Below are positions 7,154-55,649 of a stretch of DNA of 64,000 bases, piece after piece. The stretch's first letter is position 1. Each line of letters starts with the position of its first letter. A model generated the notes under the pieces. That model saw only the letters and a program-made list of their open reading frames with translations. It had not been told where the DNA came from and did no database searches. The stretch is taken from positions 236,531-300,530 of the forward strand of contig MNCI01000472.1 of assembly GCA_015680685.1 (NCBI GenBank), written 5' to 3'. The stretch is from Gnetum montanum. Lineage: Eukaryota > Plantae > Gnetophyta. Both the position numbers and the translations under genes were made by a program.

Positions 7154-9028
7154 TGAAACACCATCAACTTCAGGATCCTGCAATTCAATGGTAGATTTGT
7201 CTAAGTGTCAAAAATTGGGCAAAATTTTTCTAAGTTTGGTGTTGCACTCTGCAGCATAGAAAACATAGCACACCTCAAGTCCTATTTTTTGCAAAATTTT
7301 TCTAAGTCTACTTGTTACACTTCCTAGAATGGCTAGCATAGTAGACACTTCCATGACCAATCTACACAAGTGTCAAGACAGAAGTGGTCAGGGGTTGCTT
7401 AGGATGGACCAAACAGTTTGGCAAATTTTCTATCTCCTGGACTATCAAGCTCGCTAAGCTCTCTAGCATGTCCAACTTGACACATGTCCCAGTTTCCAAT
7501 TCACCGAAGTATCAGGCTAGAGTCTGTTAAAAGTTCTTAGGATGGAAAAAATAGTTTGGAAAATTTTCTCTCTTAGGCTATCATGCTTTTCTATGCTGCA
7601 CAGTGTAGCAAGCTTGATGCAAATTTTAGGGTCCAATTTTGCTTAAGTGTTGGACAAGGATTTATCAAGATATCTCAACATGAAAAATGCATTTGGCACA
7701 TTTTCTAACTTTCAAGGCTACCTATCTTGCTACACCACAAAGTGTGGTTAGCATGTTATGAAGAAACATTTCAAATTTCATCAAAATTAATCAAAGTATT
7801 CATGTTGTGCTCTACTATGCTATTCAATGTAGCCAGTGTGATAGGTATGGCAAGTCAAAATTTGCAAAATTTCACCAAGTGTTCTTACTAAGCTGTGTAG
7901 TATAGCTAGCTTGACATAGAAAGAATGATTTCCATAGCTTCAAAAAGCCTCTAGAACTTAGCATCAACCTTCATCTCATCTTCGATGTCCCTCCAATGAT
8001 CAAGATCAATAGTTTGCATTTGTTTTGCACCCCCCATCAATTCCCAAAATTGTCCCTACACTTGACCCTACTTGGAAGAGGGGAAAGACGTAGTCCTAGA
8101 GCATAGTCTCCAAGTTGCATTGTTTTGAAATTGTTTGTAGATACGTGGAAGTCTCTCAAACTTTGGCACATGTAGTCCAGGTAGTGTTTTCACAGTTCGA
8201 TAGTATTTGGGTACATGTTCTTGTCCTGCAGAGCATAACACTTTGCTACAAAGAGCATAACATGTTAGCATGACTTGTCTATGCTTGCACCATGTGGCAT
8301 TCATGCCACATGGTGTTCTGTTCAATTCACGTTTCACACCAAACCTAGCCCTATAAATACCTTGACGTTTAGCACTTTAGGGGTTGGAAAATCATAAGAT
8401 CACTAAGCATTTGAGCACCTCTGTCACTCCTACACTTGAGTGCTCAAGCTTTACACCTTTCCAAATATCATGATGTAGTCTTCCATTGCACTCGCATAGC
8501 ACAAAGACAACCAACCTAGTAGGTACAACCTCCCTTGTAGGTACTAGCACTACATCCTTGACATCCCAGAGACTGTAAGCACACCACTACGCTACCATTG
8601 TGCTTGTCTAACACCATGTAACAGTTTCATATCTTGTTCAAGCAAACGTTATGCTTCCAGGTTTTGGGGCAGTGCATTTCTCTACTCCTAAACTTTTGTT
8701 CCATTTTCTTTCTCAGCATTTGTTCAAATTTTTAGCATAAATCTTGCATTTCTTTGTTGTCAATATGCATTTGCATGTTTACGTCACTATTTTTGGGCTA
8801 AGACTCTACACTACACTCTTGCTTGTTGTCTTGGTCCCCACGCATAACACTCCATAAAATCCTTTACAAATAGTTATTTTTACATCATGTAAGTCCTTGT
8901 CCAATCAACTAGATCATTCAGGGCACCTCACTTCCATTTCCCTAGCACGACCCTCACATGGATTTGGGTTAGGCTGTATGCTCACGAACCTCTCAATGTT
9001 TTAGCCATCGACATTTTTGAATGTCATA
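7154..9028 (+). repeat. Element B 5' LTR
   Basis: Starts TGAAACACC, ends GTCATA (CA>TA); collinear with 24513-26385; TATAAATA at 8352-8359. Confidence 0.95.
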
Positions 9029-9502: not shown

Positions 9503-12500
9503 ATGAACCCCGTTAACACCTCAGCTGCTACCTTGAGCTTGGAGGTGGGTCACCCTATTCAACATGTGGGAGATGTTGAGAAACCACCTAGCTCAGTGTG
9601 ACCACAATGGTAGTTTCTCAAACTATGATACCAATCACCTGAATAAAGGGTGCTCAATGATGAAAGGTACAACTTCATGTGTGCAGAGCTTCAAGAAGGC
9701 CTATCATTGGACCACCAAGAAATGGAAGCAAAACATAGTTTCAAGATCATTCACTGAAATGGGAGGGAGTTTGTTTCCACCCCTAACGTGATCATGCCAC
9801 TCACCAAAAACTTCAAGTGGATCTTAGACCAACTCATTAGGGTGAGCAGGACAAGAGAGCAGGATGCGACATCAAACTATGATGAACCCTTGCAAGATGG
9901 GCAAGAGGAGTTTGAATCCTGTTCCAATGGTGGCATCTCATTCTTCATCTCAGTCGAAAAGCTTGTTCCCATTTTCATGTCCCACTAGTCACAGTCCTCT
10001 ACCTTCTTTGAGGTAATCGTGATTCTTTCACAACCCAAGTCTTTGTTGGTGGTAGCTAGCCACCAAGTCTTGACTACACAACAAGGTGTAGGACCTTCTG
10101 CTTCCTTTCCTTTTGTCATTTCTTTGCAGTCTGTTCAGCCTTCACAGTCGGCATCTGTGATGCCAACACTGCTATATGTGCATACCATGCCCATATAATA
10201 GCCATAGACAAGTCACATTCCCATTATCCTAGCCATCTCAATCACACCACCAATAACAGCCCTAGCCTCAACTATGTGGTGAGTTGCAACATTTGTACCA
10301 TTGTACAACTATCACATGTGCTACAATACACATAGAAATAAACTTACCAAGTGTCACATGTGGTGGCATAGCCCACAATAGGGTTGTGGGCTGCTCTGAT
10401 GGAATCACCAACAGCACAGCTGATGCAACCCTTTACAACATCTTCGAGTTTGGACTAAGCATTCCAAGTTATCCAAACCCTCATAGAGGAGGTCAGGTGG
10501 CTTAGAGAGGCCAACTTAGAAATGTCCACATAATGGACTTCTACCAAGATGATCCTATTAGCCTAGTGGTACCTCTAGTAATGTTGCCTCCTCTAATTTC
10601 TCTAATTCAGCAAATACAATGGTAAGGGTAAGCCCAACACTCACTTAGTAACTTTCTGTTTGAGTGCCTACTATTGCAAGCATGGCCACACATGATCCAT
10701 ATTTTTTCCATGTCTTTGACTGGCAAAGCTCTCGACTAGTATCGTGCACTCCCTAGAGCTTCCATCTCAACTCTAGAGGAGCTGCTAAGCCAAGTTGTAA
10801 CTTGCTTCATGTATAACTTGAAGCTTGAGGCCATGCTAGATCAATTGATGAACGTTAAATAAGGAGCACTAGAAACAGTGCAAAAATTCATACAACATTG
10901 GAGCACCTCCGTTAACGAGATTCGTAAGCCTATAGCCAAAACCCACCTATTGGCCATTTTCAAGGGTGCAGTAAATGATTTCATCAAATTGAAGTTGTAC
11001 TATTTAGCCCCGTGTTCTCTTACCCAAGATTTTGCTTAAACAAAGAGCATACATGATGCGGTAGAAGCCAATAGGGACCTGGCTTATGTGGCCTACAAAA
11101 ATGCACATGCAAAGAAAGACAAAGAAAAGGGGAAGGTCACAATAACCATGGAAGCTATGGCTGATGAAGCTAAGCCCAAAAACAACAAGCTAGTGGCCGA
11201 GGCACCTAAAGCCCTAACCAAAAACAATAAAGCATCGGGTTTTGGCAATGAAGGAACCAACCAACCAACATCCTCTACAGCTATAGGGTAAGCTCTCCAA
11301 AGGCCAAACTTCAAGTGTAAGGATCGCTCAAAGTACACCCCTTTGCTAATCAAGTTATTAGAGCTTTTGGATCAATTGCTTGGTGTTGGGTGCATTCAAA
11401 AAAAAATGTTAGAGGATGCATGAAAATGCCATGAGAGATACTGTGAGGTCCTCTAAAAACCTTCTACAGCTATGCTAAATGAGCCTTTGGTACTTAAGAA
11501 CTTTAGTCTGGATCGGTTCTACAACTACCATTAGCTACATGGCCACGACATGGATTATTGCTTAGCGTTGAAGGATGAGATTTAATGCATGATTGATCAA
11601 GGAAAGCTTATCCTTGATGAAAGTAATCTTGTCTAGCTGGAGAACCAGCCCATGAAGGTCTACAAAGACCCACTAAATGCTAGTAGTGCAGGTTACATTA
11701 TTAATGTTATTAGCATTGATGATGATGTAGAGTTGACACATGAACCGTTTATGGTTCATGTGGCCTTTGGTGACATTGGGGCCTCAACATCAACTACACC
11801 ACAGGCCCCCTTTGTCATCAAGGCATCACCTTGGGTGCCCATAACACCCTTTTTGGTTAGGGCCTCATAGCATGTTGTGGTAATGAAACCTAGACATCTT
11901 TTGTCATTAGGATGCCAAAACGTGTGGACCCCCCACCTATTCAGGGTATGGTGGTGGGAACTGTATCGCAACCCACCCACCCAAAGAGACATGATGAGCA
12001 TCTAGCTAACAAGATGATTAGGGAGCACATGGAGCTAGGTTTTCCTAAGCCCACTCTCTTGTCAGCCATACCTATGGCCTCATCGTCTTAGGCCACTAAC
12101 ACCAAAAAAAATAGTAGGCACACAAATGTTGAGGTTTGAAAGCCCACTACCCAACCAAAAACCAAGTCTCCTCCTTGAGAAATCTATTTCCTAGGATGTG
12201 TGGAGGAGGTAAAGACCATCAAATAAGTTAGTAAAAAATATTTTCTAGATGTACCCGCATAGGTCAAACATGCTCTAAAATAGAAAAACACAACATTGAG
12301 CCTATACGACTTGATTATGACCTTTCCTACTCATTGTGAAGCCCTAGTTTGCATGATGGAATCTATTCATATTAAGGAGGACATGTCGGTAGATGAAAAG
12401 GCTATCCATGCAATAATGATCCTACTTGCAATGAAAGAGCCAAGGTCAGTACCCTTGACCTTTCGTGATGAAGCAATCAAAGTTGACCCTGAAAAGGATT
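9503..12500 (+). pseudogene. gag: Element B gag (decayed)
   Basis: Gag core FSMSLTGKALD.YRALP..SIST.EELL near 10700-10800. Tat-type Zn knuckle remnant F(Y)NYH..HGHDMDYC..LKDEI near 11520-11590. Homologous to C gag (MKVYKDPLNA vs MQVHKDLLNA). Confidence 0.8.
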
Positions 12501-13130
12501 AGGTAACCACTATGTTCATAACAATTTGCATGGGTCAATACAAGATTCGTAGGGTGCACGTAGATGACAGGGCAACAACCAATGTTATTCCATTCTCCAT
12601 CGTCAACAAGATTACCTGGTAAATCAAATTAGGCCAACAACAACAATGTGTTTGAAATCCTTTAATGGAGCATGTGTGGTTGTCAATGGGGCAATCACGA
12701 TTAATTCTGTGATAGGGGAGGAATTTCGCACTAATGCTGAGTTCATTGTGATTGAAGAGATGCTTGGATTCGACCTAATCCTAGGGAGGTCCTGGTTAGC
12801 CTAGCTACGAGCCGTTTCTTCACCCATCCACCAAGAGATCCACTTGCCTTACAAAGGTGGGGAGGTGGCGATCTTTGGTGATAACATAGCCCCTCTAACC
12901 ATCAACAACATAGACATCAAACAAGGGTTGGAGGTAGAGATCTCTTGAGACACACCACCCATTTACAATGAAAGTCAATGTTGTTTGGCTGATGTCAAGT
13001 AACCAAGCAAGACGAGTGACCTTCATGAGGAAGCTCTATGGGTAGAATTTCCCTTTTTCATAGCAGATGATGGCCTAGGGGAATACCGTCTACTGCCTTC
13101 TAGGCCTTATGCACCACTTAATCCCCATCA
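12500..13130 (+). pseudogene. Element B protease and short downstream linker
   Basis: IRRVHVDDRATTNVIP; FDLILGRSWL; SPIHQEI. Confidence 0.85.
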
Positions 13131-13304
13131 GATTAGGAAGCATTTGCGCAAGTAGGGCATGTCCCAAATTCGCTTGCCTGTCCAACTTGCTTTTTGTCCC
13201 TTTGCCTGTCTAGTTACAATTTTGCATTATCGTTTGCATCTTGCATTAGTTACAGTTTTGTTTAAATTTCTTTAAAAAATAGAGAAAAAAAGAGGATCAG
13301 AAAG

Positions 13305-13679: not shown

Positions 13680-16600
13680 AAGTATTTCAGTTTGCATTGT
13701 GCGATGAGAAGCTAGGGCTCTTCCCCTTTGTCTTCGTTTACTACTCCACTGGGTCTCGCACCCTCACCTAGTGCTTGCGTCAAAAAAAAAATGAAACAAT
13801 AAAACCATTAATAAATGAGATAACATGAAAAATTAAAATGAAATAGACAATAATAAAGTAAGTTAAACCAACCTGAGATGGGCCCACATCCATGTCTGGG
13901 GGCATCCTATCAAGGTTAGCCTCTAGGCATCGGAGGATTTCATCCTTCAACATGTGTGTCCAATCCTCCTTGCCCAAATTGATGCTTGCGAGGGTTTTCC
14001 ATTTCTCCATGGCTGTCCATATGGGCAGCCTTGGCAAAAATGTTCTAGAAGTTACCTCTCTGGAAGGAACAGTGATCTCTCTCTCTCTGGGGATTCACTA
14101 ATAACTACATGGCTCACAAATAGTTTGTAAGCCTACTTTGCACCGATTGCGTAAAGGAATATCTCTTGACATTAGTGCTCCATAGACTCATCCTTATATT
14201 TCTTGCAATAGGCTTCATGATCTAGCTTGTAGTGATGTTTGTGATTCTTTTCTACTTGTTCCCATTCATACACTTTTGCACTATAATCCTTCCAATCTTG
14301 GTTTTTCCTAGCTAAGAGGTCCATCTAAAACTATTGTTCAATGACCTCATGGGTAGCCTTATTTTTACCCCAAATAGCTAACTAGTACTTTGTGTAATTG
14401 ATCATAGCCATGCGCCAGCTACCATTTGAATTGTTGCACATTGCTAAGAAGTTGTAGCATAATTGTTAATCTTCCAGTCTAGTCACCTGGTTCGCCTTCT
14501 ATTCCCAAAGCTCTTGCACTTACTTCTACAACTCCTCGTTTACATGGCTACACTCCCACAATGCTCGTGCAAAGTGCAGTGCACACTTGCTTGCCTTGTT
14601 GTATACACGATGAGACACTTGCTTTACCATGAGGGGGAACTCAGGTATGATGTTGACTTAAATTGCTCTGTTCAGGTCCCATTTGAGTTGTGAGCCTGTT
14701 ATCCCAACAATAAGTGGCAAAACATTAGCCATAAGATAAACAAGAAAACCAAACAAACAAAATAAAAAAAACCACGAAAAAAAGAGGAAAGAGATTATGA
14801 TAGTAAAATAAACGTACCCATCTCAGGGTCTATCTATTTGAGGTGGTCTATCATATCATCCACCACACCTTGCATAAAGGAAAACTTATCTGGAGTTTCC
14901 ACCCATGGTCATGTGCAAAAGGTTGATGTTGATTTTGGACATTCAACAGAAGCGTTGGCCACTGTATCATAAAGCATTTTATGATCATCAAAACAAAACA
15001 CAAAAAAAAAACACAAAACACAAGAAAAAAAAGAACATAGTGAAGATGGCAGTGCAAAACTCCTACCCAACAAGCCCTTAGGGGTGAGAGTGGGGGATCG
15101 CCCATCTGCATGCCATTAAACAAATGTTCAAACTCACCATCATCAAACTACAACCCCTCTTCTTCAATTTGCCTCAACACTTAGGTAGCTTCTTACTCAT
15201 TCTCATCTACTAGGTTGTCCCTCAAGTTAAGGGACATTGTCCTCTAAGGGGTCCTCTTCCATTTTAGGGGCCCTTTTTCCTATGTTGCACAAATTTAAGT
15301 TAGAATATCCAACAATAAATAAAAAAATAGAATAACATTAAATAATGCATACTTACTAGCTAATTCTGATCACATGTTGTGGAGTTTGAATTGCAGCTTC
15401 TTACCACTCTTCTCCACTTCACGCGTAGGCTCCTTTGTGGGGTGAGGCTTCTTGATTTGCATTTTTGATGACTTCATCATTTCAGCCATGAGTTGTGCCC
15501 CTCTTACTGCATTGCTAGTGTTTGTTGGTGGAGCCTCCTTGGCACTACCACATGCATGGTAGGATTACCCCACATGGCCTTTGGTTGTTACTGAGAACAA
15601 CTCACCAATAGCCTCTAGGGGGTCCTATGATCACATGGTGTGGAACAAGTGGCAGATCCACAACTTGGAGATTTGGATACAATCTTGCACCATCCATTGC
15701 TTATTCTTGTGGACCACTAAGAGTTTTGCAAAATTTTGTAGGCATGCTACGAAGAAGAAAAAATGCATGTGCAATCATGCCTAGAGGTTGTTGTGTAGCT
15801 TGACGATTTCAGCTTGCAGGCCGTTGACAAGGTAGTTTTTCCAATTATACTACATCCCCTCCTCTATCACGCCTCTCATGATTCAATATTGCTGCACCCC
15901 AAGGAACTTTCCTTGGGAAAGCAGCTTAGGAAATGCATGAGCCCAGAAAATGGGATAGAGGTGGTGGGCCATAGGTAATTCCACCATCTTCATGAGTATA
16001 CCCTTACAATCCTTTTTAGTGCCCAACCATTCTTCAGTGTTCCCTCTATGGTCTAGGTCCTTATCAATCTTTTCTACCATTGGTAGACCTTCATAGGGGA
16101 TGCCGAAGAGATCCAGGAAGAGTTCATTCATGATCTCAAAGACCAACTGCACATTATGAACTTGCGTGAGGAAGCGGTCAACACTCTTAGTAAAAGAATC
16201 GAGTAGGGAAATCATCTTGGACACTGAGATGTTTGGGTACATAGCCAAGAAGAGGTTCATGAGCCTAGCCCACTAAAGATTCTAGGCTACCTCTACTGAG
16301 GCCTTGTAGCACAACCAGTGCTATGAGCTCTCGACTTCACCATACTTGAAGAGGAGAGTGGCCTCAGTGCACCTTGAAGTAACCATTGTAACTTCTTTTA
16401 ACTTAGCTACAGTTGTAATAAGAAAAAGTAGAATTAGTAACATGATGAAAATATAAAATTAAAAGTGCATGAAAGTAAATAGGTAATATGACTTACATGG
16501 CACAAATAGTGTGCAGGATGGTGGTAGTGGGACTGAAACCTCATCTACACTTGGTATCCTGGTTGTCTAGTCAACATTTAACTAGTTAAGATTTCGACAC

Positions 16601-18634
16601 CTCTCATAAGATTTGGAATACTTGCTAGGGTATAATATCAAATTTGCCCCAAATTTCCCTATCACTCTAGCACACATATTCTTAGTGGATGAGAATTCTT
16701 GTAGGTTAGTTTTGGTTAAATTTAATATCCCCTCTTCATCATGGATGCCATTTGCATCAATGAAAAACCTAGCAATAGGCAAAAAGTAGTTAGCATCCTA
16801 AATCATGAAATAATAGGTAGTGCAAAAAATCATAACAAGGCTCACCCTTTAGCATAATAAATTGTCCCAGGTGGGTTTTGAAAAATGGTGTGCATGCATC
16901 AAGAAAGAAATACGGTGTTATATTTGTTGTAGAATTGGAACTCAGGCATCCCCTAGATCCTAGACAAAAGTTTGAAGCTTTTCTGGCACTAGCTCGAGCT
17001 CTCCACCTCTTCATCTTCAACAGGCTTATCAGACATAAAATTTAGAATGCCTTAGTTTGCCCCAGGAAAAAATGTCTCAACTATGATACTTGCTGCTTTA
17101 ACTGACAAATGTGACCACATTATTACACTGAAGTGGTGGAGAAAGAATTCTAGGAATTCCTGCACACCTGACCAGAACCAAACTGCTTGGTGTTCCACAT
17201 GCATGTGGTGCAGGAACGTTTGGTACATGATCACTCATACAACATAAAATCCCCACCAGTTTGACCATGATGAGAATAAGCTTTAGCAAGACCCTGCAAT
17301 GCCACAGTAGTAGTAAGATGAAAATGTTACCATAAAAAAGAAATAAAATAAAATAAAAATGCATAACATAAAAATTGAAAATTAATTACATTCAACATAA
17401 TTAACCTTCTACTAGGCCCTATGGGAAAGGAATATTGGCATCCCCATCTAACATGCCTAATTTCCAATAGGACATAACATTAACACTTACATTTTCTCAA
17501 GCATTACAATTTTAAAGAAAATATGAAAAAAATTTCTAACTATCGGTTACGCTCCCCATAGAGCATGACATCTTTAAACTCAATTTTTCTAAGTGCTAGT
17601 TATGATTCCTATGGAGTGTAACATCTAATAATTTTTTTTTAAATTTTTTAAGTGTTAGTTACACTCCCCATGGAGCGTAACATTTGGTAAAAATTTTATA
17701 AATTTTTCTAAGTGTTAGTTACAACACCTATAGAGCATAATAATTGCAAAGCTTCAAAAAATTTTCTAAGTGTTGAATGCAGCAGTTTCAAAAAATTTTC
17801 TAACTTTTTGTTATGTTCTCAAGGACACCCTAGCATGATGAACATGACCCTGGGCCACCATGGTCAAGTCCTATCCTGCGCTGTGGCATGGGATGCTCAG
17901 GAAACCTCTATTTCATGCTATAGTGTGGGATGCCCAAAAAACCTTTATCTCACTCCATGGTGCAGGATGCCTAAGAAACCTTTGTTTCACATTGTGGCAT
18001 GGAACACCAATGAAACCTCGTTTTGTGCCATGGCACGAGACACGTAGAAAACCCTTGTTTTGCATTGTGGTGTGGAATGCTCAAGCCCTTATGATATGCT
18101 ATGCTTGTGGTACACATGCTACGATCATGGTACACTCTACCAAAATCCTTGTTCCATGCTATGCTTGCAAGACGATGCAGTAACCCCTATTCTGCATCGT
18201 TGTGTGAGACACTGTGAAAAAATTATTTTGCACTGCGACACAGAACACCTAGAAACCCCTGTTCCATGCCACAGTGTAGGATGCCTAGGAATCCTTGACA
18301 TGAAAAAGAAAAAGGACAAAAAAAATAAAAAATAAAAAGTAAAAAAAATGTAGTGCATGTACTCCCTTTCTTGGCTATGGCTCAGAGTGGTTGCAATAGT
18401 GACAATGGTCCCTGCCCACAGCAGGCCATCCTCAAAACTCAAAACCCAAAAAATCCAAGATGTGTAGGAAAGTAGGGAAAGAAAAAAATTACAAAGGTAA
18501 AGCGTGGTGGCTTACCTGGCCAATGACGTTTCTTGGCAGTCCCCAATGCTCACCTTGGGAAGGTGCTTCAAGGTACACTCACCTTCATCAACGTTGGTGA
18601 GGTTGGGGTGTTTACATTTGCTATGGCGCATCAT
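13680..18634 (-). pseudogene. Antisense 8-exon accessory gene of element B (FCP1/NIF-like HAD domain, central domain, coiled coil), decayed
   Basis: Predicted exons 18634-18516, 17293-16846, 16768-16497, 16406-15357, 15279-15067, 14961-14818, 14695-13873, ~13773-13680. GT..AG introns with T-rich bodies. The first two junctions are phase-consistent (both phase 2). Protein-level match to the gene in C. Confidence 0.8.
17480..18290. repeat. Two adjacent degenerate tandem arrays in predicted intron 1 of the B accessory gene
   Basis: 17480-17820: ~55-60-bp units TTTTCTAAGTGTTAGTTACRCTCCCCATGGAGCGTAACAT. 17870-18290: ~38-bp units ACCC(T)TGTT..RCRCYRTGGYRTGGGATGCC.A(G/A)GAA. Confidence 0.8.
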
Positions 18635-19151: not shown

Positions 19152-20840
19152 GTGCCACTTGACATTTTTCTAGTTGTTTTGCAAGATCTCCTGAACAAGA
19201 TTGCAAAAATGAATGCATACGAGAGTCTTCATTCATCCTTAGGCTTGATTGGACCTTATGGTGGATCCATGAGATGCATAAACACAAAACTCCTAGACTT
19301 TGAACTGCTTACCTATGACACAAATGTAGCGTCCCTTGAGAATTGCTAGACTAGCCAAAACATCTAGTTAGAGGTCTAAACTTAGAAGTGGGTGACGTAA
19401 CCAAGGATCCTCTCATAGAAGTCCCTATAATAACATCAAAGGTGAGGTGAAAACATTAAAAATTAGTTCCTCATTAGAGCCTCAAATCCAAAAAAACATC
19501 TTTAAAGTCCTTAGTAATAATGTCAAGGCATTTGCATGGTCCTACGAGGACATGCCGAGGTTAGACCCTCATATAATACAACACAACATTATTCTCGATC
19601 CTTGTGTAAAGCTAGTTAAGCAAAAGGTTATAAAGTCAAGCCTGAGGTTGTGTTGGCTGTCTACGATGAGATCACTAAGCTCTACAAGGCTGGTTTCATC
19701 TAGGTAGTTGACTACATCGACTGGGTCTCAAACATTGTAGTTGTCCCCAAGAAAAATGGAAGTATATGCATTTGCATAAACTTCCGGGACCTAAACAAGG
19801 CAACCATTAAAGATGATTTCTCATTGCCTAGTATTGACCAACTCATTGATACTACGGCTGGTCATGCCTTGTTGTCCTTTATGGACAGGTTCTCAGGGCA
19901 CAACCAAATATGAATCAACCTAGAGCACCAACTTAGCACTACTTTCATGACCCCTTGGGGTACATTCTGTTATACAATGATGCCCTTTAGACGAAAGAAC
20001 ATAGGAGCAACATATCAATGCACAATGACATACATCTTTAGCGACTATCTATTAGACTTGCTCAATGGCTACGTTGATGACATAGTAGTTAATTCCAAAG
20101 TAGCTTATGACCATGTAGATGACTTGGACTATGTCCTCAAATGTTGCCTTAGACATGACCTTAGGCTTAATCCCAAAAAGTATGTCTTTGGCATCAAAAT
20201 TAATCACATGTTAGGCTTTGTGGTCTCAGAAGTAGGCATACGCGTAGACCCAATAAGGTTAAGGCTATCACCAACTTAGCACCACCAGCAAACCTTAAGG
20301 AGTTATGTTGGTTATAAGGTAGATTACAATTCATACATAGGTTTATGGCAAGGTTGACTGACGAGTTGCATCCAATGCAACATTTTCTCAAAAAGGGAGT
20401 CCACTTTGAGTGGACAGCTCAATGCCAAGAGGCATTCAACAACCTAAAAAAGGAGCTAGCTCAACTCTTGACAGTCTATCATCCACAAGAAGATAAGCCT
20501 TTCTACATTTACCTTGCAACCTCAAACACGTTCATTGCTTCTCTACTTTTCCAAAAGTGAGACGATGGCTCGAAGGTGCTTGTTTACTACTTAAGCCATG
20601 TGCTAGTAGCCCATGAGGTAAAATATAACGATGTGGAGAAGAACTATCTTACCTTAGTCTTTGCACTCAAAAAGTGGAGACATTACGTTTTCCACAGTCA
20701 AGTTAATGTCATCTGCAAAAGCAATGTACTTAGGGCCATTACAAGGAACATATATGAAAGTAGCCAAATAGCAAGGTGTAAGGTAATAATTGTGGAATTT
20801 TACCTACACTATATAGTGCAAGCATGCACAAAAGGTTAAG
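19152..20840 (+). pseudogene. pol: Element B RT and RNase H
   Basis: FAWSYEDMP.LDP, WVSNIVVVPKKNG, SFMDRFSGHNQI, MMPF, YVDDIVV, YIYLATS, YYLSH.L...E..Y..VEK..L.LVFA.KK.RHY. Candidate splice acceptor ACAG at 19148-19151. Confidence 0.95.
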
Positions 20841-20949
20841 CAATAGTTGCATAACTCATAGCTTCACCTGTAGATGATCAAGAAATACTAGATCTGGAAT
20901 TCTTGGATGAGCATGTTAATAGTATAAGTCAAGTACCTACAAAATTTGA

Positions 20950-21330
20950 GGTTTTCTTACACTTTGATGATGCTTTAACCACACGAGATGGTAGTGCTAT
21001 TTTCATTATCATGTTCCCCTCTGGGGAGATCTAACCCTTCGCATATCACTTCACATTTCCTTGTATAAACAATGTGGTAGAGTATGAAGGTCTTCTTAGA
21101 GGCATCTTAGTAGCCTAAGAGCTAGGAATTCAAAACATAGCAGTCTAAGGTGATTCGCAGCTAGTCATTAACCAAGTCATAGAGGTTTACGCTTATAAGG
21201 CACAACATCTACAACTTTACTGTGATTTGGCAAAACACCTACTCAAACAATTTGCAACTAGAGATGTCCAACATATCCCCTGTAATGAAAATTATATAGC
21301 TAATGCATTAGCTACTTCAGCCTTAAGCAT
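20950..21330 (+). pseudogene. Element B additional (archaeal-type) RNase H, aRH
   Basis: LHFDDA...FPCINNVVEYEGLL.G..VA.ELG......GDSQLVINQV..HIPCNEN..ANALA. Confidence 0.9.
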
Positions 21331-21569
21331 AGCACCAAACATGTTTTCTACTTTGCCCACTTCAATAGTGGATTGTGTTGAACCTATAACTCACACAACA
21401 TGCATTGCATCCATAAGCAAAGCTCATGCCCAAGAGTGGTATGACAATATAAAGGCATACCTCTAATAGGGAGAGCCCTTACAAAATCTAACCTTTGCCC
21501 AAAAAGATGTAGAACGAAAGCGGTCATGGTAGTAGATCCTTGTAGGTGATAGCAGCTTATGTTGCAGAT

Positions 21570-22682
21570 CCTATGATGGAATACTATTAACTTGTGTTAG
21601 TGGCAGTGAAGCACAAAAGATTTTCAACCAAGTTCATGAGAGACTATGTGGGGGTCATATAGCCCCTAGGGTAATGGTGGAAAAAATTAGATATCTAGGC
21701 TATTACTGGCCTTACATGGAGCATGATTGTGTCTCCAAGGTTAGGACATGTGACATGTATAAATGACATGGAAACCTAATACATGTGCCACCCACTAAAC
21801 TGCATACTACATAGATCACGTGGCCATTCCAACGTTGGGGGTTGGATATCATCAGGCCTATAACACCTAAGTCTTCCATAGGACATAGCTTCATCATTAC
21901 TACAATTGAATATTTTACAAAGTGGGTTGAAGCCATTTCCCTTAGGAAGACAACATCACAGCAGGTTTGTAGATTCATCCTAGATAACATAGTGACTCGA
22001 TTTGATCTTCCCATGACTATAGTCATAAACAAAAAGCCATAGTTTAGCAATGCAAAAAAAAAAAAAGCGCCTTTTGCAAAAACCTTGGCATGAAACATTC
22101 CTTATCATCACCATACTACCCATAGGTGAATGGTCAAGCAGAGGCTATAAACAAGGTCATCATCAACCTTCTGAAGAGGATGCTTAACAATAGCAAGCAA
22201 TGATGGCATGAACAACTAGTCTACATGTTATGGGCCTACCATATGACATGCAAAATAGTAATAGGTAAGACACCATATAGTCTTGTGTAAGATTTGAAGC
22301 AATGTTGCCTCTTGAATTGTAGGTCCCATTGCTCCACATGATTCTTTCAAGCTTCATTGATGAGATCCAAAACAACAAGTTAAGGACCATCGACCTTGAC
22401 TCTATAGAGGAGGAGCACATGCAAACACTTGATCGCATTGAGTGGTACCAAGAAAAGCAACGAAAAAAGCACCATCACAATCAACATTAATGACCAATCA
22501 AGAAGGGGGACCTAGTCCTCAAGATCTTCTGCGAGCTTGCAGACAAGTTCTTAGCCAACTAGGAAGGGCCTTGTTTGGTCATAAAGATGTACGACAATGA
22601 AGCCTTCAAGCTCACTGATCTAGATGACAATGAGTTTACCAATCCTATTAATCACTCATACCTGAAGCCGTACTACACCTGA
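21570..22682 (+). pseudogene. Element B integrase
   Basis: HERLCGGH...GYYWP.M..DC...VRTC, WPFQRWGLDII, EYFTKWVEA, YYP.VNGQAEAINK, and a GPY/F-like N.EGPC.V. Confidence 0.95.
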
Positions 22683-24512: not shown

Positions 24513-26385
24513 TGAAACACCACTAACTTTGGGCTCCTGCAGTTCAACGGTAGATTTGTCTAAGTGTCAAAACTTAGGCAAAATTTTTCTAATTTTGGTG
24601 TTACACTCTACAATGTAGAAAGTGTAGCACACTTGAAGTCCTATTTTTTACAAAATTTTATTAAGTTTTCTTGTTACACTCCCTGGCATGGCCAACGTAG
24701 TAGACACTTCCATGGCTATTCTACACAAGTGTCAAGCCAGAAGTGGTCAAGGGTTGCTTGGGATGGACCAAACAGTTTGGAAAATTTTCTATCTCATAGA
24801 ATATCAAGCTCGCTACACTCTCTAGCATGCCTAGCTTGACACAAGTCCTAGTTGCCAGTTCACCCAAGTACCAGGCTAGAGTCTATCAAAAGTGCTTAGG
24901 ATGGAAAAAATAGTTTGGTGAATTTTCTCTCTCAAGTTGTCATGCTCTGCTACGCTACACAGCATAGCAAGATTGACACAAATTTCAGGATCCAATTTTG
25001 CCTAAGTGTTGGACAAGGATTTGTCAAGCTATCTTGACATAAAAGATGCATTTGACACATTTTCTACCTTTTGAGGTTTCCTGTCTTGTTACACCCTAGA
25101 GTTTGGTCAGTGTGCCATGAAGAAACATTGAAAATTTCATTAAAATTGATCAAAGTATTTATGCTATGCTATGCTATGTTATGCAATGTAACCAGCATGA
25201 TAGGTGTGGCAAGCCAAAATTTACAAAATTTCACTAAGTGTTCTTGCTACGCTCTGCTACATTATGAAACATAGCTAGCTTGACATACGAAGAATGCTTC
25301 CAATAGCCTCCAAAAGCCTCCAGACCTTAGCATCAACCTTCATCTTAGCTCTGACATCCCTTCGATGACCAAGATCAATAGTTTTCATTTCTTTTGCACC
25401 CCCATTGATCCCCGAAATTGTCCCTATGCTTGATCCTACTCGAAAGAGGGGGAAGATGTAGTCCCAGAGTGTAGTCTCCAAGTTGCATTGTTTTGAAACT
25501 ATTTGTAGGTATGTGGCAGTCTCTCAAACTTTGGCACATGTATTTCAAGTAGTGTTATCATAGTTCAGTAGTCTTTGGGTACTCTTTCTTGTCCTACAGA
25601 GTGTAAGACTTTGCTACAAAGAGCATAACATGTTAGCATGACCCATCTATGCTTGTGCCACGTGGCGTCCAATCCACGTTTCATGCCAAACCTAGCCCAT
25701 AAATACCCTAATGTTTAGCACTTTAGGGGTTGGAAAATCATAAGAGCACTAAGTATTCAAGCATTCCAAGTGCCTCTGTCACTCCTGCACCTAAGCACCC
25801 TAGCTTCACACCTTGGCAAGTACTATGACATAGTCTTCCATTGCACCCACACAGTGTGACAACAACCAACCCAATAGGTTCAGCCTCCCTTATAGCTACT
25901 AGCACAACATCCCCAACATTCTAGAGGCTATGACTGCACTACTACACTACCACTATTCTTGTTCGATGTCACATACCAATTTCATTTCTTGTTCAAGAAA
26001 AAGTTACACTCCCAAGTTCTGGGGTAGTGCATTTCTCTACTCCCAAAATTTTGCTCCATTTTCTTTCTCAACATTTGTTTCAAATTTTTAGCATAGCTCT
26101 TTCATTTCTCTGCTATCAATACACATTTTCACGTTTATGTTACTATGTTTGGACCAAGACTCTCTGCTACGCTCTTGCTTGTTTTCTTAGCCCCAACGCA
26201 TAATGCTCCATAAACTCCTTTACAAATAGTTATTTTTACACAATGTAACTCCTTGTCTAATCGACCAAACTATTTAGGGCACCTCATTTCTATTTTTCTA
26301 GCATGGCCCTTGCATGAATTCAGGATTAGGTTGTACACCCATGGACCTCTCAGTGTTCTAGCCATTGACATTTTTGGACATCACA
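24513..26385 (+). repeat. Element B 3' LTR
   Basis: TGAAACACC...ATCACA; 7 mismatches to the 5' LTR in the first 60 nt, 6 of them transitions. Confidence 0.95.
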
Positions 26386-40519: not shown

Positions 40520-41648
40520 TACCCAAGTGCTTTACTATGGGAGCTACAAATTCCATGAGTGCAGTGTGGAGCTTGAAAGTCCACAAATCCTAGAGGGGCT
40601 TACAAGGCCACAAGGTCACAAGTTTTCTATGTTAGGTTCAATAGAATACAAGTGTGGAAACTTGTAAAAAATATTGAGTGCTTGAGAATGCCCATGTGTA
40701 GAACTATGAAAAATTTGTATGCAGAAGTGTATGTATGTTAAAAGTTGCTGAACTATATCAAAAAAATTACTTAACCTTTTGAAAATTGTTGAACCTGTAA
40801 ATGGTGTTTGAGGTTGGATTTTATAGGTTTTTTGGCCATGAATGGGGATAAAAAATGGTTGTAATTTTGCTGAAATTTGGCCACACAATGACTGCAAATT
40901 AGCTACAAATTTGTTACAAATTTATACCTTGTTTAGGTGAGATGGGTGCCCAAATTTGAGTGGTTACCATATATAGTAAGTGCCTTTCCCCATGGCCATT
41001 TTGTTTACTATAAATAGTGACTGAGGCATACCTTCCACATTGAAGATGAACTTTCTAGCATGAGCTCTCCACCATGCTTGTTGAAGTGGCTAGTCTTGGA
41101 GTGCATGAAGTGTTAAAATTTGGCTTTTGTGGCTTCCATGCTAGGGGGATGCCATTTCCATGCTAGGTATGGACCCTTGACATTGGGGGGAAACTTCCAT
41201 GCTAAAGGGGAAAATTTTCCAAGTTGAACATGTAGTCTCCATGCTAAGGGAAAAGTTTCTAAGCTGAGGGAAAATCCCCCACTCTCCATGCTAGGGGTAG
41301 GTGAGATTTTCCCCTTGCAACTATTTCCAATGTAGAAAAATGTATACCCACCATAAAACCCATCAAGTTGCCATTTTGGCATTCCAAAAGGCATTTTTGA
41401 CACACCCCCTCCCTCAACACCCCCCGTCCACAAGCCCAAATATAGACATTAGATGACTTTTTTCACTTGGGGAATGAGGCTTTGATCACTTATGAGGCAT
41501 TTTCTCGCCCCAAAAGTATGGAATATGTGAGATTGACCCTTATGGATTACAATCTTCACATTTACAATGAAGTTTTACCTTCAGTTTCATGGGGTGAAAG
41601 CTACATGATGAAAATGGACTATAGCATGAAAATTGTTGTGGTGTTTTA
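40520..41648 (-). repeat. Element C 3' LTR (distal ~490 bp missing)
   Basis: Collinear with ~60835-61912; PPT at 41649-41661. Confidence 0.9.
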
Positions 41649-41898: not shown

Positions 41899-43000
41899 CT
41901 ACATGTAGTATGGATTTAGATAAGAATGGTTGACCAAATTGGCCAGCTCATTCCCATCCATATTGGCTATCCTAAATACTCCATTGCCATAGGCTCTAGT
42001 TACAAGAAAGAGTCATTATCAATTGGTTGAGAATTTATTTGCATGCTCATAGATAGCCTTGAGGACTAGGTCATCCTCCTTGATCTTACGCATGATCAAG
42101 TTATGGTGATGTTATTGCTTCTACCTCTCTTGATAGTAGTCAATGTGAGCAAGAACTTGGATATGTTGCTCCTTCACCAAGCCTAGGACTTCTGTCCATA
42201 ACTCCTTGCTCTACTTCTCTTTGATGTAGACAGTCAAGGCTACTCAGAGTGATGGCACCTACAATTCAAGAGGTAAAACAACTTTAGAACCATAAACCAA
42301 ACTATAAGGGATCATACTAGTTATTATGTAATAGGTTGCTTTGTATGCCCATAGTGCATGGACAAGCCACTCATGCCATTTTCTCTTGTTGTTGTTAAGC
42401 ATCTTCTAGAGCAAGTTGATGATGGCCTTGTTGCTTACTTTTTATTATCCATTGGCTTGGGGGTAATAGGAAGATGAGAAAGAATACTCGATAACTAGGT
42501 TGTGATAGAAATATTTCATTTCGAGGCTACTAAATTATGGTATATTATCTGTAACTATTGTCATGGGTATGACAAAATAAGCTACAATGTTATTTAGGAT
42601 GAATTTGTAGATTTTCTCAAATGTAGTCTTCCTTAGGGGAATATCCTCAACTCACTTTATAAAGTATTCGGTTGCAGTGATGATAAAACTATATCCCGTA
42701 GAAGAATTAGGCATTATGGGTTCAATGATATTCAACTCCCATCATTGAAATAGCCATTTTATCTAATTGGTATGCAACTCAGTTGGTGATACATGTATGA
42801 GGTTGCTATATTGTTATCATTTGTCATAATGCTTAACATTTTGTAGGCAGTTTTTTTTTCATATGGGGCTAGTAATAGCCTAACCATTTAATCTTAGTAG
42901 CCATAACTCTTGGTCCTATATGTCCTCCATAAGCACCCTCATGAACCTCTTCTAGGACTATTTTAGCTTTGGGTTTACCTAAGCACCTTAAGAGTATGTC
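41899..43000 (-). pseudogene. Element C integrase
   Basis: HEGAYGGHIGPRV...GYY.P; W(L)FQ.WG..IIEP; YYPQANG; PFLSKSILH-like end matching B. Confidence 0.9.
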
Positions 43001-43239
43001 ATCATGGGATTGTCGACATAATGTATTATCACCTACGATGACATACTATTTTGATTACTTACGTACAAAGTCCTTTGAGTAGTAGTTAGGTGGGATTCAC
43101 CATGCATAAGGTAAAATTTAATATCATCATGCCATTCTCTGGCAAGAGTAGTATGAATTACGGCCACAAAGGTATCCTTCGTGTTATGTGTGATGGAAGT
43201 AGCATAGTCCATGGTTAAGGTGGGCAACTTACTAAACAC

Positions 43240-43625
43240 ATCTAGCATCACACAAAGGGCTAATGTTGCAATTGCATCAACTATGGTGTTTTTGTTTTGG
43301 GGTATGTGTTGGATATCAACATCTATAAATTGTTGTAACAATTACTTTCCTAGGTTACAATATGGTTGTAAGTGTTTTGCTTTACATGCATAGACTTCGA
43401 ATACTTGGTTAACCATGAGTTGTAAATTACCTTTGATTACTAAGTATCTAATTCCTAGGTCATGAGCTACCATCATCCCTCTGATCAAATGATCATACTC
43501 CATTATGTTGTTACATGGAAACCCAAAATGATAGTCGAAGGATTGGATATCACTAGATGGGAATGTTATGATGGTAGTGGCACTAGCCCCATGGGTAGTT
43601 GAAGCTCTATCAAAGTGCATGACTA
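43240..43625 (-). pseudogene. Element C aRH
   Basis: MHFDRAS...FPCNNIMEYD.LI.G..VAHDLG...KGNLQLMVNQV...HIPQNKN..VDAIA. Confidence 0.9.
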
Positions 43626-43739
43626 CCTCATAATCCTTGGGCACTTGGCTATCTACATTAATATGTTCATCAAGGAATTTAGAATCTATGGTTGCTTGGT
43701 CATCAACAGGTGACGCTATGAGCTATACAGTTTTAGCTT

Positions 43740-45389
43740 AACCTTTTGTTAAGTATTGAGAGATGTAATGAATGTTAAACACTATGGTTATGGCTTTCCA
43801 TCAAGATATATGGATACTTTCATAGATGTTGGTCATTATGGCTTTGATTATGATGTCTTTGCAAGTGACGTTGACTTGGCTTCTAAAGAGGTAGTGTCTT
43901 CACTTCTTTAAAGAGAAGACTAGTGCTAGATAATATTTCTCCACTTTAGTGTATCGAGCCTCGTGAGCAACTAATGCATGGCTAAGGTAGTATATAGGAA
44001 TTTTTACTCCATCATCATATTTTTAACAAAGTAGAGAAGCAAAAAATATGTTGAAGATGGAAAGGTAGATGTATAATGGTTTACCCTCTTGTAGAGAATA
44101 GACTAGCAGTAGTTGTGCTAAATCTTACTTAAGGTTTTCAAAGGCCTATTGGCATTAAGCTATCTACTCATAGTGAATTTTTTTCTTAAGAAACTGTTGC
44201 ATGGATTGTAACTTATCTGTAAGCCTAGCAATAAATCTATGAATAAATTTCAATCTACATTGTAATACCTAAAGATCCTTAAGGTTGGTAGGTGCTGCAA
44301 ATTTAGATATGACCTTAACCTTATTAGGATCGACAAGTATCCCTACTCAGAGACTACAAAGCCAAGCATCTTACCAGTTTTGACATCGAAGACACATTTC
44401 TTAGGATTCAGACTAAGCTTATATTTGAGGCACCATTTAAGTATAAGGTCTAGGTTATTAGCATGGACATTGCCCATCTTGGACTTAACGACTATGTCGT
44501 CTATGTAATAATTAAGCAAACCTAGCATGTAATCACTGAAGATATAGGTCATGGCTCTCTAGCATGTTGCTCCTACATTCTTAAGGCCAAAGGGCATCAT
44601 AGTATAGTAAAAGGTCCCTATTGGTGTGATAAAGGTCATGCTAAGTTTGTGCTCTGGGTTGATCCTGATTTGGTTATATCTCAATAATCCATCCATAAAT
44701 TATAAAAAGGCATGTTTGGCTATAGTATTGATAAGTTAATTAATACTAGGCAAAGGAAAGTCATCCTTAATGATTGCTTTATTCAGGTCTCAAAAGTTAA
44801 TGCAAATACAAATACTCCTATTTTTCTTAGGGACTACCACTATGTTTAATACCAATAGCCCTAATGAAACTAGCTTGATAAAGCTTTGAGATTTCATCAC
44901 GGACTACCAAGGCCAAATCAGGTCTAATTTTGCACACTTTTTTCTTAACTAGTCTAATGGTAGGGTCTAGTATGATGTTGTGCTAGAATAAACATGGTTC
45001 AAGGCCTAACATGTCTTCATATGACAAGGCAAAGACCTTAATGTTACTATGTAGGACCTTGGTGATGTCTTGAGAATATTGAGGTTCTAGAAAGGAACTT
45101 AATTTAAGGGTTTTCTTCTCACCATTGTGCATTGTGATATGAACCTCAACTAAATGGTCTTTAGTTATGTCACCTACTTCTAAGTCAAGGGTTTTGAATA
45201 GGTTTTTAGGCCATTCTAGAGGTTTCTCTATTGAGGCTATGTTGTCTATAAGACTCTTAGGCTTAAGATCCAGGCAAGTAAGGTTAATACATCATTCAAT
45301 ATCACCATGAGGTCCATGTAGATACTGATTTTCTTCTAGGTACTCATACTTTGATCCTTCATATTAACCAAAAGCATATTAAGTGGTAG
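43740..45389 (-). pseudogene. pol: Element C RT and RNase H
   Basis: FALSYEDMLGL, KDDFPLP, MMPFGLKNVGAT, MTYIFSDY...YIDDIVVKS...LNPKKCVF. Confidence 0.95.
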
Positions 45390-50752: not shown

Positions 50753-50777
50753 CATGCTTTTGTTTTGTTTCATGTAG

Positions 50778-53700
50778 AGTTTTCTTGAGGCCCTTCCTCA
50801 TCATTATAGAGTTGGTGGCTATTTTTTGCTACATTGGTCATCGAAAGACCAATACCCCACTTCCCGATATGTATTTGGAGAAGACTTCACTATGGTTTTG
50901 TCCTAGGGCAAGGGAATTCCTTGCCTACATTCTACAAAACTTCAGTGTGATGTTCTGGTCACACTTGTCTGCGGATGTGGTTGGGGTTTTAGTGGAGTCT
51001 CTACTACCTTTGACATTTGGTTTGGTTGCCAAGTTCACTACCAACAAGCCACCAATAGGAGGAGTGATAGATGCTACTAGTCCACATTACCTCACAAAGA
51101 TCTTGATGATGCTAGAGTATAGTTAATATAATGTTGACAATACTATGTTGGTGGCGCATAGAGCCCACACGTTATTCCAAAACCTACTTGGAACCATGTA
51201 TCATCTATAAGGGTAAGCATGGTTATTTGTAATTTTTTTATGCTTTTATCTTGACTACCTTTCTAAACTTCATCAATTTTACAAACTTATTGTAGGTAAA
51301 AGATCAATGATCAAGGCTTGATCATCAATGATCAAATCTTGGTAGTGGCTCAAACTACTTTAGACAAATTCACCAAGAGTCCTTAGATTAGAACTATTAT
51401 GTATTAATAGTTTAGAGGATACTTTGATACATACACTTCAAGGTTTAATCTTGTATACAAGAAGTGTAAGGATGATGGGATGATGAACAACTGGTGGGAA
51501 AACTTTGACAACTCCATAGATCAGACCCTTGCAACTGGGACCTCTACTCAAATCACACCAAAGAAGAAGAGGAAAGGTAAACATAAAGGATATGGATTTT
51601 AACATTTTATGGTTATGAACATTTTAATTATTCTATTACTTTGACTAGTTATTAAACTTGCTTATGTTGATGCTAAAATTTAGTTATGGCTTTGCAAGAC
51701 CTTTCACCTCTGTTGATGTCATCATACCACTTTCAAGAGCATGTCATGAGAATACCCTCATCTTAAATTTTGGTGATGTGATACTAGCATAGGAGTGGTT
51801 GAGGGGATAGACACCTAGATACATTCAAGAAAACATCCAATGTGTAGGTTTTGTTGATGTATTTATGATACGTATCCCTTCCATCCCTGTTACAAAGATG
51901 TTGCATGTCATCAACTTCTTCAATGAGAAGACTAATAATTTCAACACCATCATTTATGATGTGAAGGTTAACATGGATATTAATGAGGGCATCTTTTGCG
52001 ACTTGTATGGTGTTCCTATTGATAGGGTAAAGGTCTTAACAAGATTAGTGAAGGGATTGAGTCATCATGATGAAGTTTTGAAGTGGCTTGGTGCCAACAT
52101 GGGCCACTCTAGAATTTCCATGGATGGCTCCATGGACCCTAATGCAAAGGATTCATATCCTTTTTTCAGGTCTCATGCATTTCCTAAACTATTATTACAA
52201 AAGAAGGTTATTGGCATATCGTAGGGGTGGTCCTTTAAGAAGGTCCTAATGGATGATACCAAGTTCAGATGGGAAGCTACATTAGCTATTAGGCTTTAGG
52301 AGGAGATCCTTGGACTCCATGCAAACACTTTAACAATAATCCACATGCATTTTGCATTTTTTTCAAGTTATTTAAAGAGGTTTGTGAAGTTTTTGATGGT
52401 GTACAGGAATGGACGATGGGTTCCCCAAGACCCAAGCCAACTTTCTAAGCCTTGGAGAAAGCACATTTATCCAATGTTGTAGAATTAAAACCCACCATAG
52501 GGGATGGATGATACATTATCCATTATCATTAATGATCTTAATGTCAAGTAGTTTGAGTCCCCTGATAGCACATGTGATGAGGAGCCTCTTACATTTCTAG
52601 CGAGAATCTTGGAGGCCAAACAACTACATAGGAAGGCCGAAGGGGTAGCCAAATAGAAAGTTAAGAGGCCTATGGAGGAAACACTACTCGCATTATATCA
52701 ACATGCCCCAAAGAAGCTTAAGTTTAAACTCAGGCCATCATAGCAAGTAGTCATAGGTATGCTTTGTTTAATTTTGGCTATTTTTTTTAAAGTTTATGGC
52801 TACTTTATGATTTCATGTGTTAACCAAATTTTCTATGTGCTATGGTTGTAGACAAATGTCAAGCTATGGCAGCCCAAGCTACTATAGAGGTAGAACAAAG
52901 GCATGTAGAAGTGGCACTCTTGAAGTAATCTGAGATTGAATGGTTTGCTGATATAGACATAAATGATCTCAATGCCTCGTTTAATGAGATGGTACTAGGT
53001 ACATCCCCCATCATCATCCTAGAGGAGGAAGAGGAGAAGGGATAAAGCATGTTCATGTCTTAATATTTTTGTTATATCTTATAGTTTAATTTTGGTTTCC
53101 ACCCTAACCATTCAATAATTGTTATGCTTATAGTAGTTCCTGAGCCATTAGTGCAAGCACTTGTCCCTAAGTTTTATTTGAAACCATGGGTGGAGACTCT
53201 AAACAAGGTTTTTTCATGCATGGAGGGCTATGGACATCATTGATCGATTACAATAGGTTGCACCCAAGATAGGTATGGACTTTGTTTTATGTGCCTTAGT
53301 TACTTGTTTATGTTATAGGTTATGCTTGCATCATGACTATTTTAGGTTGTACATTATGTTTATGGTTATATTTCATGCTTTGTGTAGTGCTTTCTATGGA
53401 GTGGAATCCCAATAGAGACATGGAGATTGACTCCTTGCTTAAGCTTCCCTCTGATGTATATAGTGTACCCTTGAAGTTGTACAAGACTACTACTAATCTA
53501 GCAATTTCATGCATAAAAACTTCATGGGAGCTAGAGAGCTCTAATGAATCCCTATGGGAGGAAGTTGTGGCCTTAAGGGAGAAGACTCAACAGTAGGATG
53601 AAATCATTAGAGACCTCTAAGATTGTAAGGCCTTTGTGGAGGCTCAAGTAACTAACTTAGGAGAGTTGTAGATTAGGGAGATCACATGGGCCCACTATTG

Positions 53701-54390
53701 GCATGTCATTCAAGACAAAGTAGTAGTCTTATGGGAGATGGTGAAACAACATGTGTAGATGGACATCATCTCCTAGAAGGTTGAGGATTGGAAAGATCAT
53801 TGTGCTTGGGTCCTAGAGTGGAGAAAGAAACAAAAGGCCCACAAGCGATAGTACAAGGCATATTGTGGAGCCTACATTAAGTGGCTTAAGGAGGAGTCAA
53901 TTGAACAACCTAAAAGAGAGCTATTCATCCAGGGGATCTAGGTGGAAAGTGCTTATCAAATTTTTGAAAGTACTCTCACAATGGACAAATCCCCTACTAC
54001 TTAGATTACCACTACTATAGGTGAGACCTCTACGACTACTATTACCTAAGAGCCTCCTACTTAGATTACAATAGATAGGACCAACATCCTCTCTAGTGTT
54101 GATCTTGGGGATGTTGACTAGGTCAACATGATGAAGGACTAGATTCTCCATTGTTTGGAGGAAAGACTTCCACATATACTCCCATAAGTAATAGAGCCAA
54201 AATCTCTATAGGTTTGATATATTTTATGTTTTTGTTTTTGTTTTAAGTCATGATTTTGGCTATGAGTTACTAACTGGCTATATGTTGTTGCATTTCAGGC
54301 CTCATGAGACATTAGCAACCCTAATTAGGAGGGTGGGAATGACTCACCACTTCCTCCTTCAGATGCCACTTAGCAACCTTCATTAGCTTA
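50778..54390 (+). pseudogene. Antisense multi-exon accessory gene of element C (homologue of the B gene), decayed
   Basis: Predicted exons 50778-51212, 51296-51576, ~51699-52756, 52852-~53040, 53134-53272, 53388-54211, 54299-~54390. First exon not located. Confidence 0.8.
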
Positions 54391-55620: not shown

Positions 55621-55649
55621 CTTCACCATTTTTGGGATTAACCTTAATT

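Follow-up and report, generated by a model that had tools for sequence, protein, structure and literature searches.

A NIF/FCP1-like domain without its catalytic aspartates, encoded antisense in two Tat-type retrotransposons

Two distantly related Tat-type Ty3/gypsy elements, referred to here as B and C, carry in the same place, antisense to gag-pol and between the gag-protease region and the reverse transcriptase (RT), an exon that almost certainly encodes a NIF/FCP1-like HAD domain, and in both copies none of the four catalytic aspartate-type positions of this domain is kept. The loss of these residues most likely predates the decay of the two copies, and it is very probable that the domain was already non-catalytic in the active elements. 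B and C themselves are dead copies; in the elements from which they descend, the domain likely served for binding without catalysis, as one module of an accessory protein that would be spliced, probably nuclear, and of help to the transcription of the element itself.

The host elements and their antisense gene

The window, which is the whole 64-kb stretch of DNA that was analysed, is eukaryotic and AT-rich and is built of nested LTR retrotransposons. The features of element B and of element C, which has the same domain order on the minus strand, are collected in Table 1. A Pfam scan of nine window segments gave matches in five of them, the protease segments being without a match. The plus strand of B is matched by Retrotrans_gag (E 0.004), RT_RNaseH_2 (1.2e-24), RVT_3 (1.3e-15) and rve (1e-4), and the additional RNase H of C is matched by RVT_3 (E 6.3e-11). 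In both elements RVT_3, corresponding to this additional RNase H, sits between RT_RNaseH_2 and rve, and the RT motifs YVDD and YIDD are found upstream of RNase H. B and C are members of the Tat clade because of the additional RNase H, which, when located between RNase H and integrase, marks Ogre and Retand of this clade (PMC6317226).

Protease and RT are separated by a spacer of about 6 kb in element B and of about 10 kb in element C. Sense-strand splice sites around this spacer were sought and could not be placed, and the same holds for a target-site duplication of B. Behind the 5' LTR of B there is a PBS-like site (9034-9050), which would fit tRNA-Asn; in C such a site was sought and none was found.

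Several other features of the window concern the nesting of the elements. On either side of B (about 5960-7060 and 26850-27530), and in its orientation, there are remnants of the RT and integrase of a further gypsy element, which suggests that B was inserted into the pol gene of this flanking element. An outer repeat pair (1887-2514 and 35500-36121, K2P 0.141) encloses B, whose LTRs differ by a K2P of 0.204. Since nesting would make B the younger of the two, either the outer pair is not a single element or the rates are unequal. Assembly gaps, seen as runs of N, occur at 31201-31928 and 58696-59427, both in stretches of very low GC; the second falls within C, where it separates the 5' LTR from gag.

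Table 1. Coordinates in the window of the features of elements B and C
Feature	Element	Position	Strand	Remarks
5' LTR	B	7154..9023	+	PBS-like site follows at 9034
gag and protease region	B	10692..13150	+	Retrotrans_gag E 0.004; protease by eye and position
Last shared coding block	B	13897..14687	-	charged, coiled-coil-like by eye
Domain X coding block	B	15589..16371	-	downstream part of the same antisense gene
NIF/FCP1-like HAD domain exon	B	16846..17293	-	one frameshift, 4 stops
RT, RNase H, additional RNase H, integrase	B	19346..22558	+	Pfam and RT motifs
3' LTR	B	24513..26380	+	K2P 0.204 to 5' LTR
3' LTR, matched part	C	40522..41648	-	K2P 0.181 to 5' LTR
RT, RNase H, additional RNase H, integrase	C	42023..45219	-	
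NIF/FCP1-like HAD domain exon	C	50778..51212	+	2 stops
Probable short exon downstream of the NIF exon	C	51296..51576	+	boundaries approximate; ends in basic PKKKRKG
Domain X coding block	C	51742..52524	+	
Last shared coding block	C	53396..54184	+	
gag-protease region	C	55178..57654	-	
5' LTR, matched part	C	60836..61912	-	

The translations that had been given for the two exons in the initial annotation are reproduced. Exon B reads LILIMVKLVGILC, then, after a frameshift near 17200-17210, WFWSGVQEFLEFFLHHFSVIMWS ... YNKYNTVFL ... FQNPPGTIY, with all four in-frame stops in the piece after the frameshift. Exon C reads FLIIIELVAIFC ... WFCPRAREFL ... FSVMFWS ... PHYLTKIL ... YNVDNTMLV ... FQNLLGTMY, with its stops at 51124 and 51208. 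AG and GT flank the exon at corresponding places in B and C, and from the sequence the exon is read as being in phase 2 at either end. The blocks downstream of the NIF exon are on the same strand and in the same order in both elements, with 32% identity over 224 residues for domain X and 37% over 105 residues for the charged block, and the NIF exon is predicted to be spliced to them. The PKKKRKG stretch at 51558 in C would be an NLS-like element. A coding block upstream of the NIF exon that is common to B and C was not found, so that the earlier label "exon 2" lacks this support, and neither the NIF exon nor domain X occurs again elsewhere in the window.

The short exon that follows the NIF exon had, by eye, been considered as a continuation of the C-terminus of plant NIF proteins; this reading was dropped, the profile giving no significant match. 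About 149 bases are duplicated in tandem just before the acceptor site of exon C (50461-50756, 82.6% identical), and upstream of the antisense gene of B there are tandem arrays with units of 59 and 37 bases (17582-17990), possibly a regulatory region.

Region B is partly present in 8 of the 20 sequencing runs listed (three studies, four organism labels), with small shares in three of these eight; no RNA run is listed there, which is evidence in neither direction. When considering two DNA runs at 80% likeness, 4181 and 4314 contigs match positions 15500-17500, with all 30 bins covered and with most of the matching contigs less than 90% alike, which indicates that the element family is large, old and high-copy. 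The RT-RNase H-additional RNase H-integrase order (19346-22558 and 42023-45219), described for angiosperm Ogre and Retand, is seen here in a genome whose elements are very old and high-copy. Two RNA runs of about 1.9 billion letters each yielded 30 and 15 reads; none of these is at least 95% alike, and no splice joint is found among the matches listed. Relatives would at most be weakly transcribed. Scans for related loci found no relative with exon C in metagenomes (0 of 77 pattern matches), nor with the RNase H alignment in viral contigs (0 of 76) and in metagenomes (0 of 253).

Identity of the domain and its nearest relatives

The initial annotation had proposed a NIF/FCP1-like HAD fold, and this assignment is borne out by profile comparisons in both directions. 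When the two-copy profile of the exon is compared with 1.84 billion proteins in an unindexed search, seven proteins are found at E <= 0.001, all of them weak matches (E 1.7e-4 to 9e-4), and six of these carry the NIF domain PF03031 above its curated cut-off, the seventh being an unrelated repeat protein. In the reverse test, a profile of 27 NIF proteins, made of database proteins only and with the window sequence and all seed matches left out, was compared with the six-frame translation of the window, and it matches exon C with E 2.6e-5 and exon B with E 2.7e-5, the next match having E 1.1. A profile of 50 NIF proteins gives E 2.6e-11 and 2e-10 for the two exons and 0.91 for the next match, this test being partly circular because the set includes six proteins that were found via the exons themselves. 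Exons B and C are the only places of the six-frame window that are matched by the database-only NIF profiles. A direct Pfam scan matched neither exon and gave nothing useful for the blocks downstream of them. A PDB sequence search with the exon profile gave no match, and a word-index protein search with exon C retained none of five candidates.

The predicted structure is also in agreement with this assignment. An AlphaFold model of exon C, calculated together with 33 NIF proteins, has a Rossmannoid HAD-type fold with a pLDDT of 76.6, as the initial annotation had anticipated; the model is driven by the alignment of NIF proteins and is not independent of it, and it shows fold compatibility. The top Foldseek matches of this model are CTDNEP1, Tim50 and Scp1-3, and the top VIA-align matches are Scp1-3 (Z 11.9-12.4), the best one being Scp3 entry 2hhl (Z 12.4, rmsd 2.4, 126 residues aligned), with a Z of 10.2 for Tim50 entry 3qle. 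In a library of viral structures, CTD-like phosphatases of giant viruses match the model.

One of the profile matches is an FCP1-like protein of Morus notabilis, and its 46 homologues are plant TIM50-like or C1271.03c-like proteins and microbial NIF proteins. The motifs were surveyed in 33 of 51 NIF-related proteins, comprising the profile matches and the homologues of the Morus protein. The motif-I aspartate (D) is present in 32 of the 33 proteins, and the D+2 position is an asparagine in 29 and an aspartate in four; the expectation that the host motif I would be DxD is therefore not correct for the nearest host subfamily, which has DxN. Judged from these sequences, the nearest relatives of the exon would be the DxN-type NIF subfamily rather than proven CTD phosphatases. 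The profile match with DxN-type NIF proteins (plant C1271.03c-like, PF03031) extends over about 140 residues with the same order of motifs, and the exons share with these proteins the WS, NT and N.P positions; the host proteins keep D, N/D and DD, whereas the element copies keep none of these, have about 20% identity to the NIF hosts, are on a long branch and are found inside a retrotransposon. In a quick tree of 46 rows, drawn up without the first piece of exon B, the Morus notabilis protein P0016 and the six shortest or weakest plant rows, B and C pair on a branch of 4.5 changes per column, and the tree does not place the donor. The donor was possibly already weakly active or inactive, since one group of fungal NIF proteins, having the DXNXT motif, is counted among the candidate pseudophosphatases (PMC13216928).

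These relationships bear on the ligand of the domain. The matches of the predicted structure to Scp1-3, together with the occurrence of the domain in a mobile element and the NLS-like stretch downstream of it in C, could be taken to point to a specific decoy for the phosphorylated Pol II CTD, or to a competitor of the host CPL/FCP1 phosphatases, by which the transcription of the element would be shielded. However, the exon and Scp have 9-11% identity, the NIF alignment drives the model, and the nearest relatives are DxN-type NIF proteins without shown CTD activity (PMC13216928). Such a decoy or competitor is considered quite unlikely, and the Pol II CTD as the ligand is unlikely.

An association of a NIF domain with a plant mobile domain (PMD, PF10536) is observed elsewhere, and two Morus notabilis proteins are relevant here. 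P0016 has a PMD half (E 1.8e-11) and a partial NIF domain, and a PDB sequence search with this protein gave no matches. In P0011 the NIF domain is whole, with DxN and DD intact, and the N-terminal part resembles that of P0016, without a PMD call by Pfam. P0016 and P0011 may represent an independent, transposon-linked PMD-NIF fusion. For domain X of the elements there is neither a Pfam match nor a match to the partial PMD of P0016, and a word-index search with domain X against longer proteins retained none of 3155. Its fold model has a pLDDT of 31 and is unusable, and atlas look-ups with two of its open frames gave sub-threshold leads alone. By eye only, domain X resembles PMD/Transposase_32 motifs.

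Loss of the catalytic residues and constraint on the exon

The absence of the catalytic aspartates, reported in the initial annotation, is confirmed for both copies. Motif I reads K-L-V in B and E-L-V in C, and the aspartate pair of motif IV, whose first residue is conserved in 33 and whose second residue in 32 of the 33 surveyed NIF proteins, is absent in B and replaced by A-H in C, such that none of the four catalytic positions is kept and neither copy has the DxDx(T/V) signature of active enzymes. The motif-II serine is retained in both copies, and the motif-III lysine is aligned in the profile alignment of B and C and is one column off in the MAFFT alignment. The conserved arginine of the RP motif and the lysine after motif IV are altered in B and C. 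The two copies also have derived residues in common, being a valine at D+2, encoded by GTG in both, and a histidine after the motif-II serine, and in both of them HT(I/L)FQN replaces YKA..N.

It might be argued that the active elements encoded a working phosphatase and that the missing aspartates reflect the decay of two dead copies. B and C are indeed old (LTR K2P 0.204 and 0.181) and interrupted by stops, the motif codons were read from two copies only, both decayed, and in a looser test, in which the loss can occur by any change and the transition rate is tripled, the loss of all four positions has a P of 0.027 for B and 0.016 for C. However, the observed codons require, from host-type codons, seven transversions in B and six in C within 12 bases, far in excess of the 0.23 and 0.29 that are expected from half the LTR-to-LTR rate (P 6.5e-10 and 1.8e-7), and the same GTG codon is found at D+2 in both copies. 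Decay of a working enzyme is therefore considered very unlikely. The excess of transversions most likely places the loss before the decay that followed insertion, and the shared GTG codon and the other shared derived residues suggest that it occurred before B and C split.

The constraint on the exon is seen when comparing the two copies over 136 codons. The identities at the three codon positions are 0.58, 0.73 and 0.33, and pS is 0.77 and pN 0.36, corresponding to a pN/pS of 0.47 (bootstrap 0.37-0.59). In the other five frames pN/pS is 0.61-1.26 with 12-22 stops, versus five stops in the coding frame. The pN/pS is 0.58 for domain X and 0.54 for the charged block, and it is 0.31-0.38, with a pS of 0.64-0.73, for gag, protease, RT/RNase H and integrase; these values are uncorrected, and the segments were taken from tblastx matches, which favours conserved stretches. 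The antisense blocks have diverged in step with gag-pol under protein-level constraint, and the domain has been kept under purifying selection, because its synonymous sites are saturated and pN/pS is nevertheless 0.47. The initial annotation had likewise described the domain as captured and kept, and the Tat-type domain set is found around the exon. If the loss of catalysis is shared by B and C, the constraint acted on a non-catalytic domain. The accompanying proposal that the domain is kept as a pseudo-enzyme is supported for B and C, where the aspartates were lost before decay and purifying selection is observed, these being two copies only.

It is highly improbable that the antisense region is a passenger, that is, a fragment of a host gene or a nested transposon that was copied along without serving the element. 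The pN/pS values of the antisense blocks (0.47-0.58) are higher than those of gag and pol, and the evidence for expression is thin (the 30 and 15 RNA reads), as would be expected for a passenger; but the place, orientation, block order and splice sites are the same in two families with saturated synonymous sites, and the pS of the antisense blocks matches that of gag and pol while their pN is far below pS.

Proposed role and comparison with known systems

The events that would account for these observations start with the capture, by an ancestor of the element lineage, of a DxN-type NIF gene, which would have been placed in reverse orientation in the protease-RT spacer. The introns of such a gene are opposite in strand to the genomic RNA, and they would therefore escape its splicing and survive reverse transcription. 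The nucleophile, the acid/base residue and the Mg-binding residues would have been lost before B and C split, and the motif-II serine and probably the motif-III lysine would have been retained. In HAD enzymes this serine and this lysine contact the phosphate, and the pocket could therefore hold a phospho-ligand without cleaving it. The NIF exon would be spliced to domain X and to the charged tail, with the NLS-like stretch in C, and the product would be an accessory factor linked to chromatin or transcription, like those encoded by other antisense accessory genes of the Tat clade. Whether the module binds a phospho-ligand or a protein, a binding role of either kind in a nuclear accessory protein appears evenly poised between true and false.

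The fold could also have been kept as a structural scaffold or protein-interaction module without a phospho-ligand, serving for instance in dimerisation or in the placement of domain X. Core residues (EFL, F.V..WS, NT and N) make up most of the conserved positions, the arginine of RP and the lysine after motif IV are altered in both copies, and the branch of B and C is very long, all of which would fit such a scaffold, but the serine of motif II is retained in both copies, and so is the lysine of motif III in the profile alignment; this possibility is regarded as fairly unlikely. A more specific and rather unlikely version of the binding module is that the antisense, intron-containing gene, carried in the protease-RT spacer by a large lineage of plant retrotransposons, encodes a phospho-ligand-trapping pseudo-phosphatase joined to a PMD-like domain, and that this product counters silencing by serving as a decoy in the phospho-signalling of Pol II or of chromatin. 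If true, the decoy gene would be the transposon-side mirror of the host PMD-PP7L module, in which PP7L is inactive as a phosphatase.

The binding module that is proposed here is of interest for the antisense accessory genes of the Tat clade as a whole, whose origin and function are described as open questions, mainly since what they encode has no known counterpart (PMC7264820, PMC4408406). In B and C one exon can be assigned to the fold of a host enzyme, and it has undergone a definite change, catalysis having been lost and selection having continued, which provides a handle for binding assays. It suggests that an enzyme captured by a retrotransposon can become a pseudo-enzyme there, and the antisense strand within the protease-RT spacer is a place for such cargo. 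Screens of open reading frames that use at least 250 open codons or single domains could miss cargo of this kind, because the gene is split into exons.

The order of the domains of B and C is like that of Ogre when considering the additional RNase H between RNase H and integrase and the separation of gag-protease from RT-RNase H-integrase. In Ogre, however, the GAG-PROT and RT reading frames are separated by an intron with a mean length of 274 bp (PMC6317226), whereas the spacers of B and C, of about 6 and 10 kb, contain an antisense multi-exon coding region, and the PBS of Ogre is complementary to tRNA-Arg (PMC9289625), versus the putative tRNA-Asn for the PBS-like site of B.

Antisense extra reading frames of Tat elements are usually found 3' of pol and encode a PMD or Transposase_28 (PMC4408406), and in Grande the accessory protein that is encoded antisense has a nuclear location (PMC7264820). 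The reading frames of Retand, Grande, RIRE2 and the gymnosperm Tat lineage III (PMD, Transposase_28, coiled coil) are antisense and conserved and have a charged tail, as is the case here (PMC4408406, PMC7264820). They are located between pol and the 3' LTR, whereas the gene of B and C is located between protease and RT and has introns; the antisense region shared by B and C is not at the place, between pol and the 3' LTR, where Retand has its extra reading frame. In the available text of these two sources no phosphatase domain is named for these reading frames (PMC4408406, PMC7264820).

The initial annotation had described the cargo as unfamiliar from LTR retrotransposons, and a literature search, with subscription journals largely outside its coverage, likewise found no report of NIF, FCP1 or CTD-phosphatase cargo in retrotransposons. 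In a published screen that covered 121 angiosperm genomes, the non-canonical domains numbered 15, and the nine of these that are named in the available part of the source do not include NIF (PMC9289625). The supplementary text of PMC6317226, which may not cover the full domain table, has no entry for NIF, FCP1, HAD or phosphatase. Antisense accessory genes of Tat elements are known, and NIF-domain cargo in the protease-RT spacer is apparently unreported.

The capture of host enzyme domains has a counterpart in orchid Ty3/gypsy elements with an AlkB-like demethylase, in which a host enzyme domain is also fixed in a Tat-clade element; the AlkB-like domain keeps its cofactor-binding residues, whereas the NIF exon has lost its catalytic residues (PMC9289625). 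In the host plants, MAIN/MAIL1-PP7L and MAIL3 associate a transposon-derived PMD with a PPP-family phosphatase domain in transcription control (PMC7156037). These proteins differ from the antisense gene of B and C in being host-encoded and in having a different phosphatase fold, and the resemblance of domain X to PMD is by eye only. The predicted fold of exon C matches those of the Scp1/FCP1 phosphatases and of fungal Tim50, although the exons have 9-12% identity to these proteins and no DxDx(T/V) motif, and in fungal Tim50 an inactive NIF domain serves as a peptide receptor (PMC8346121).
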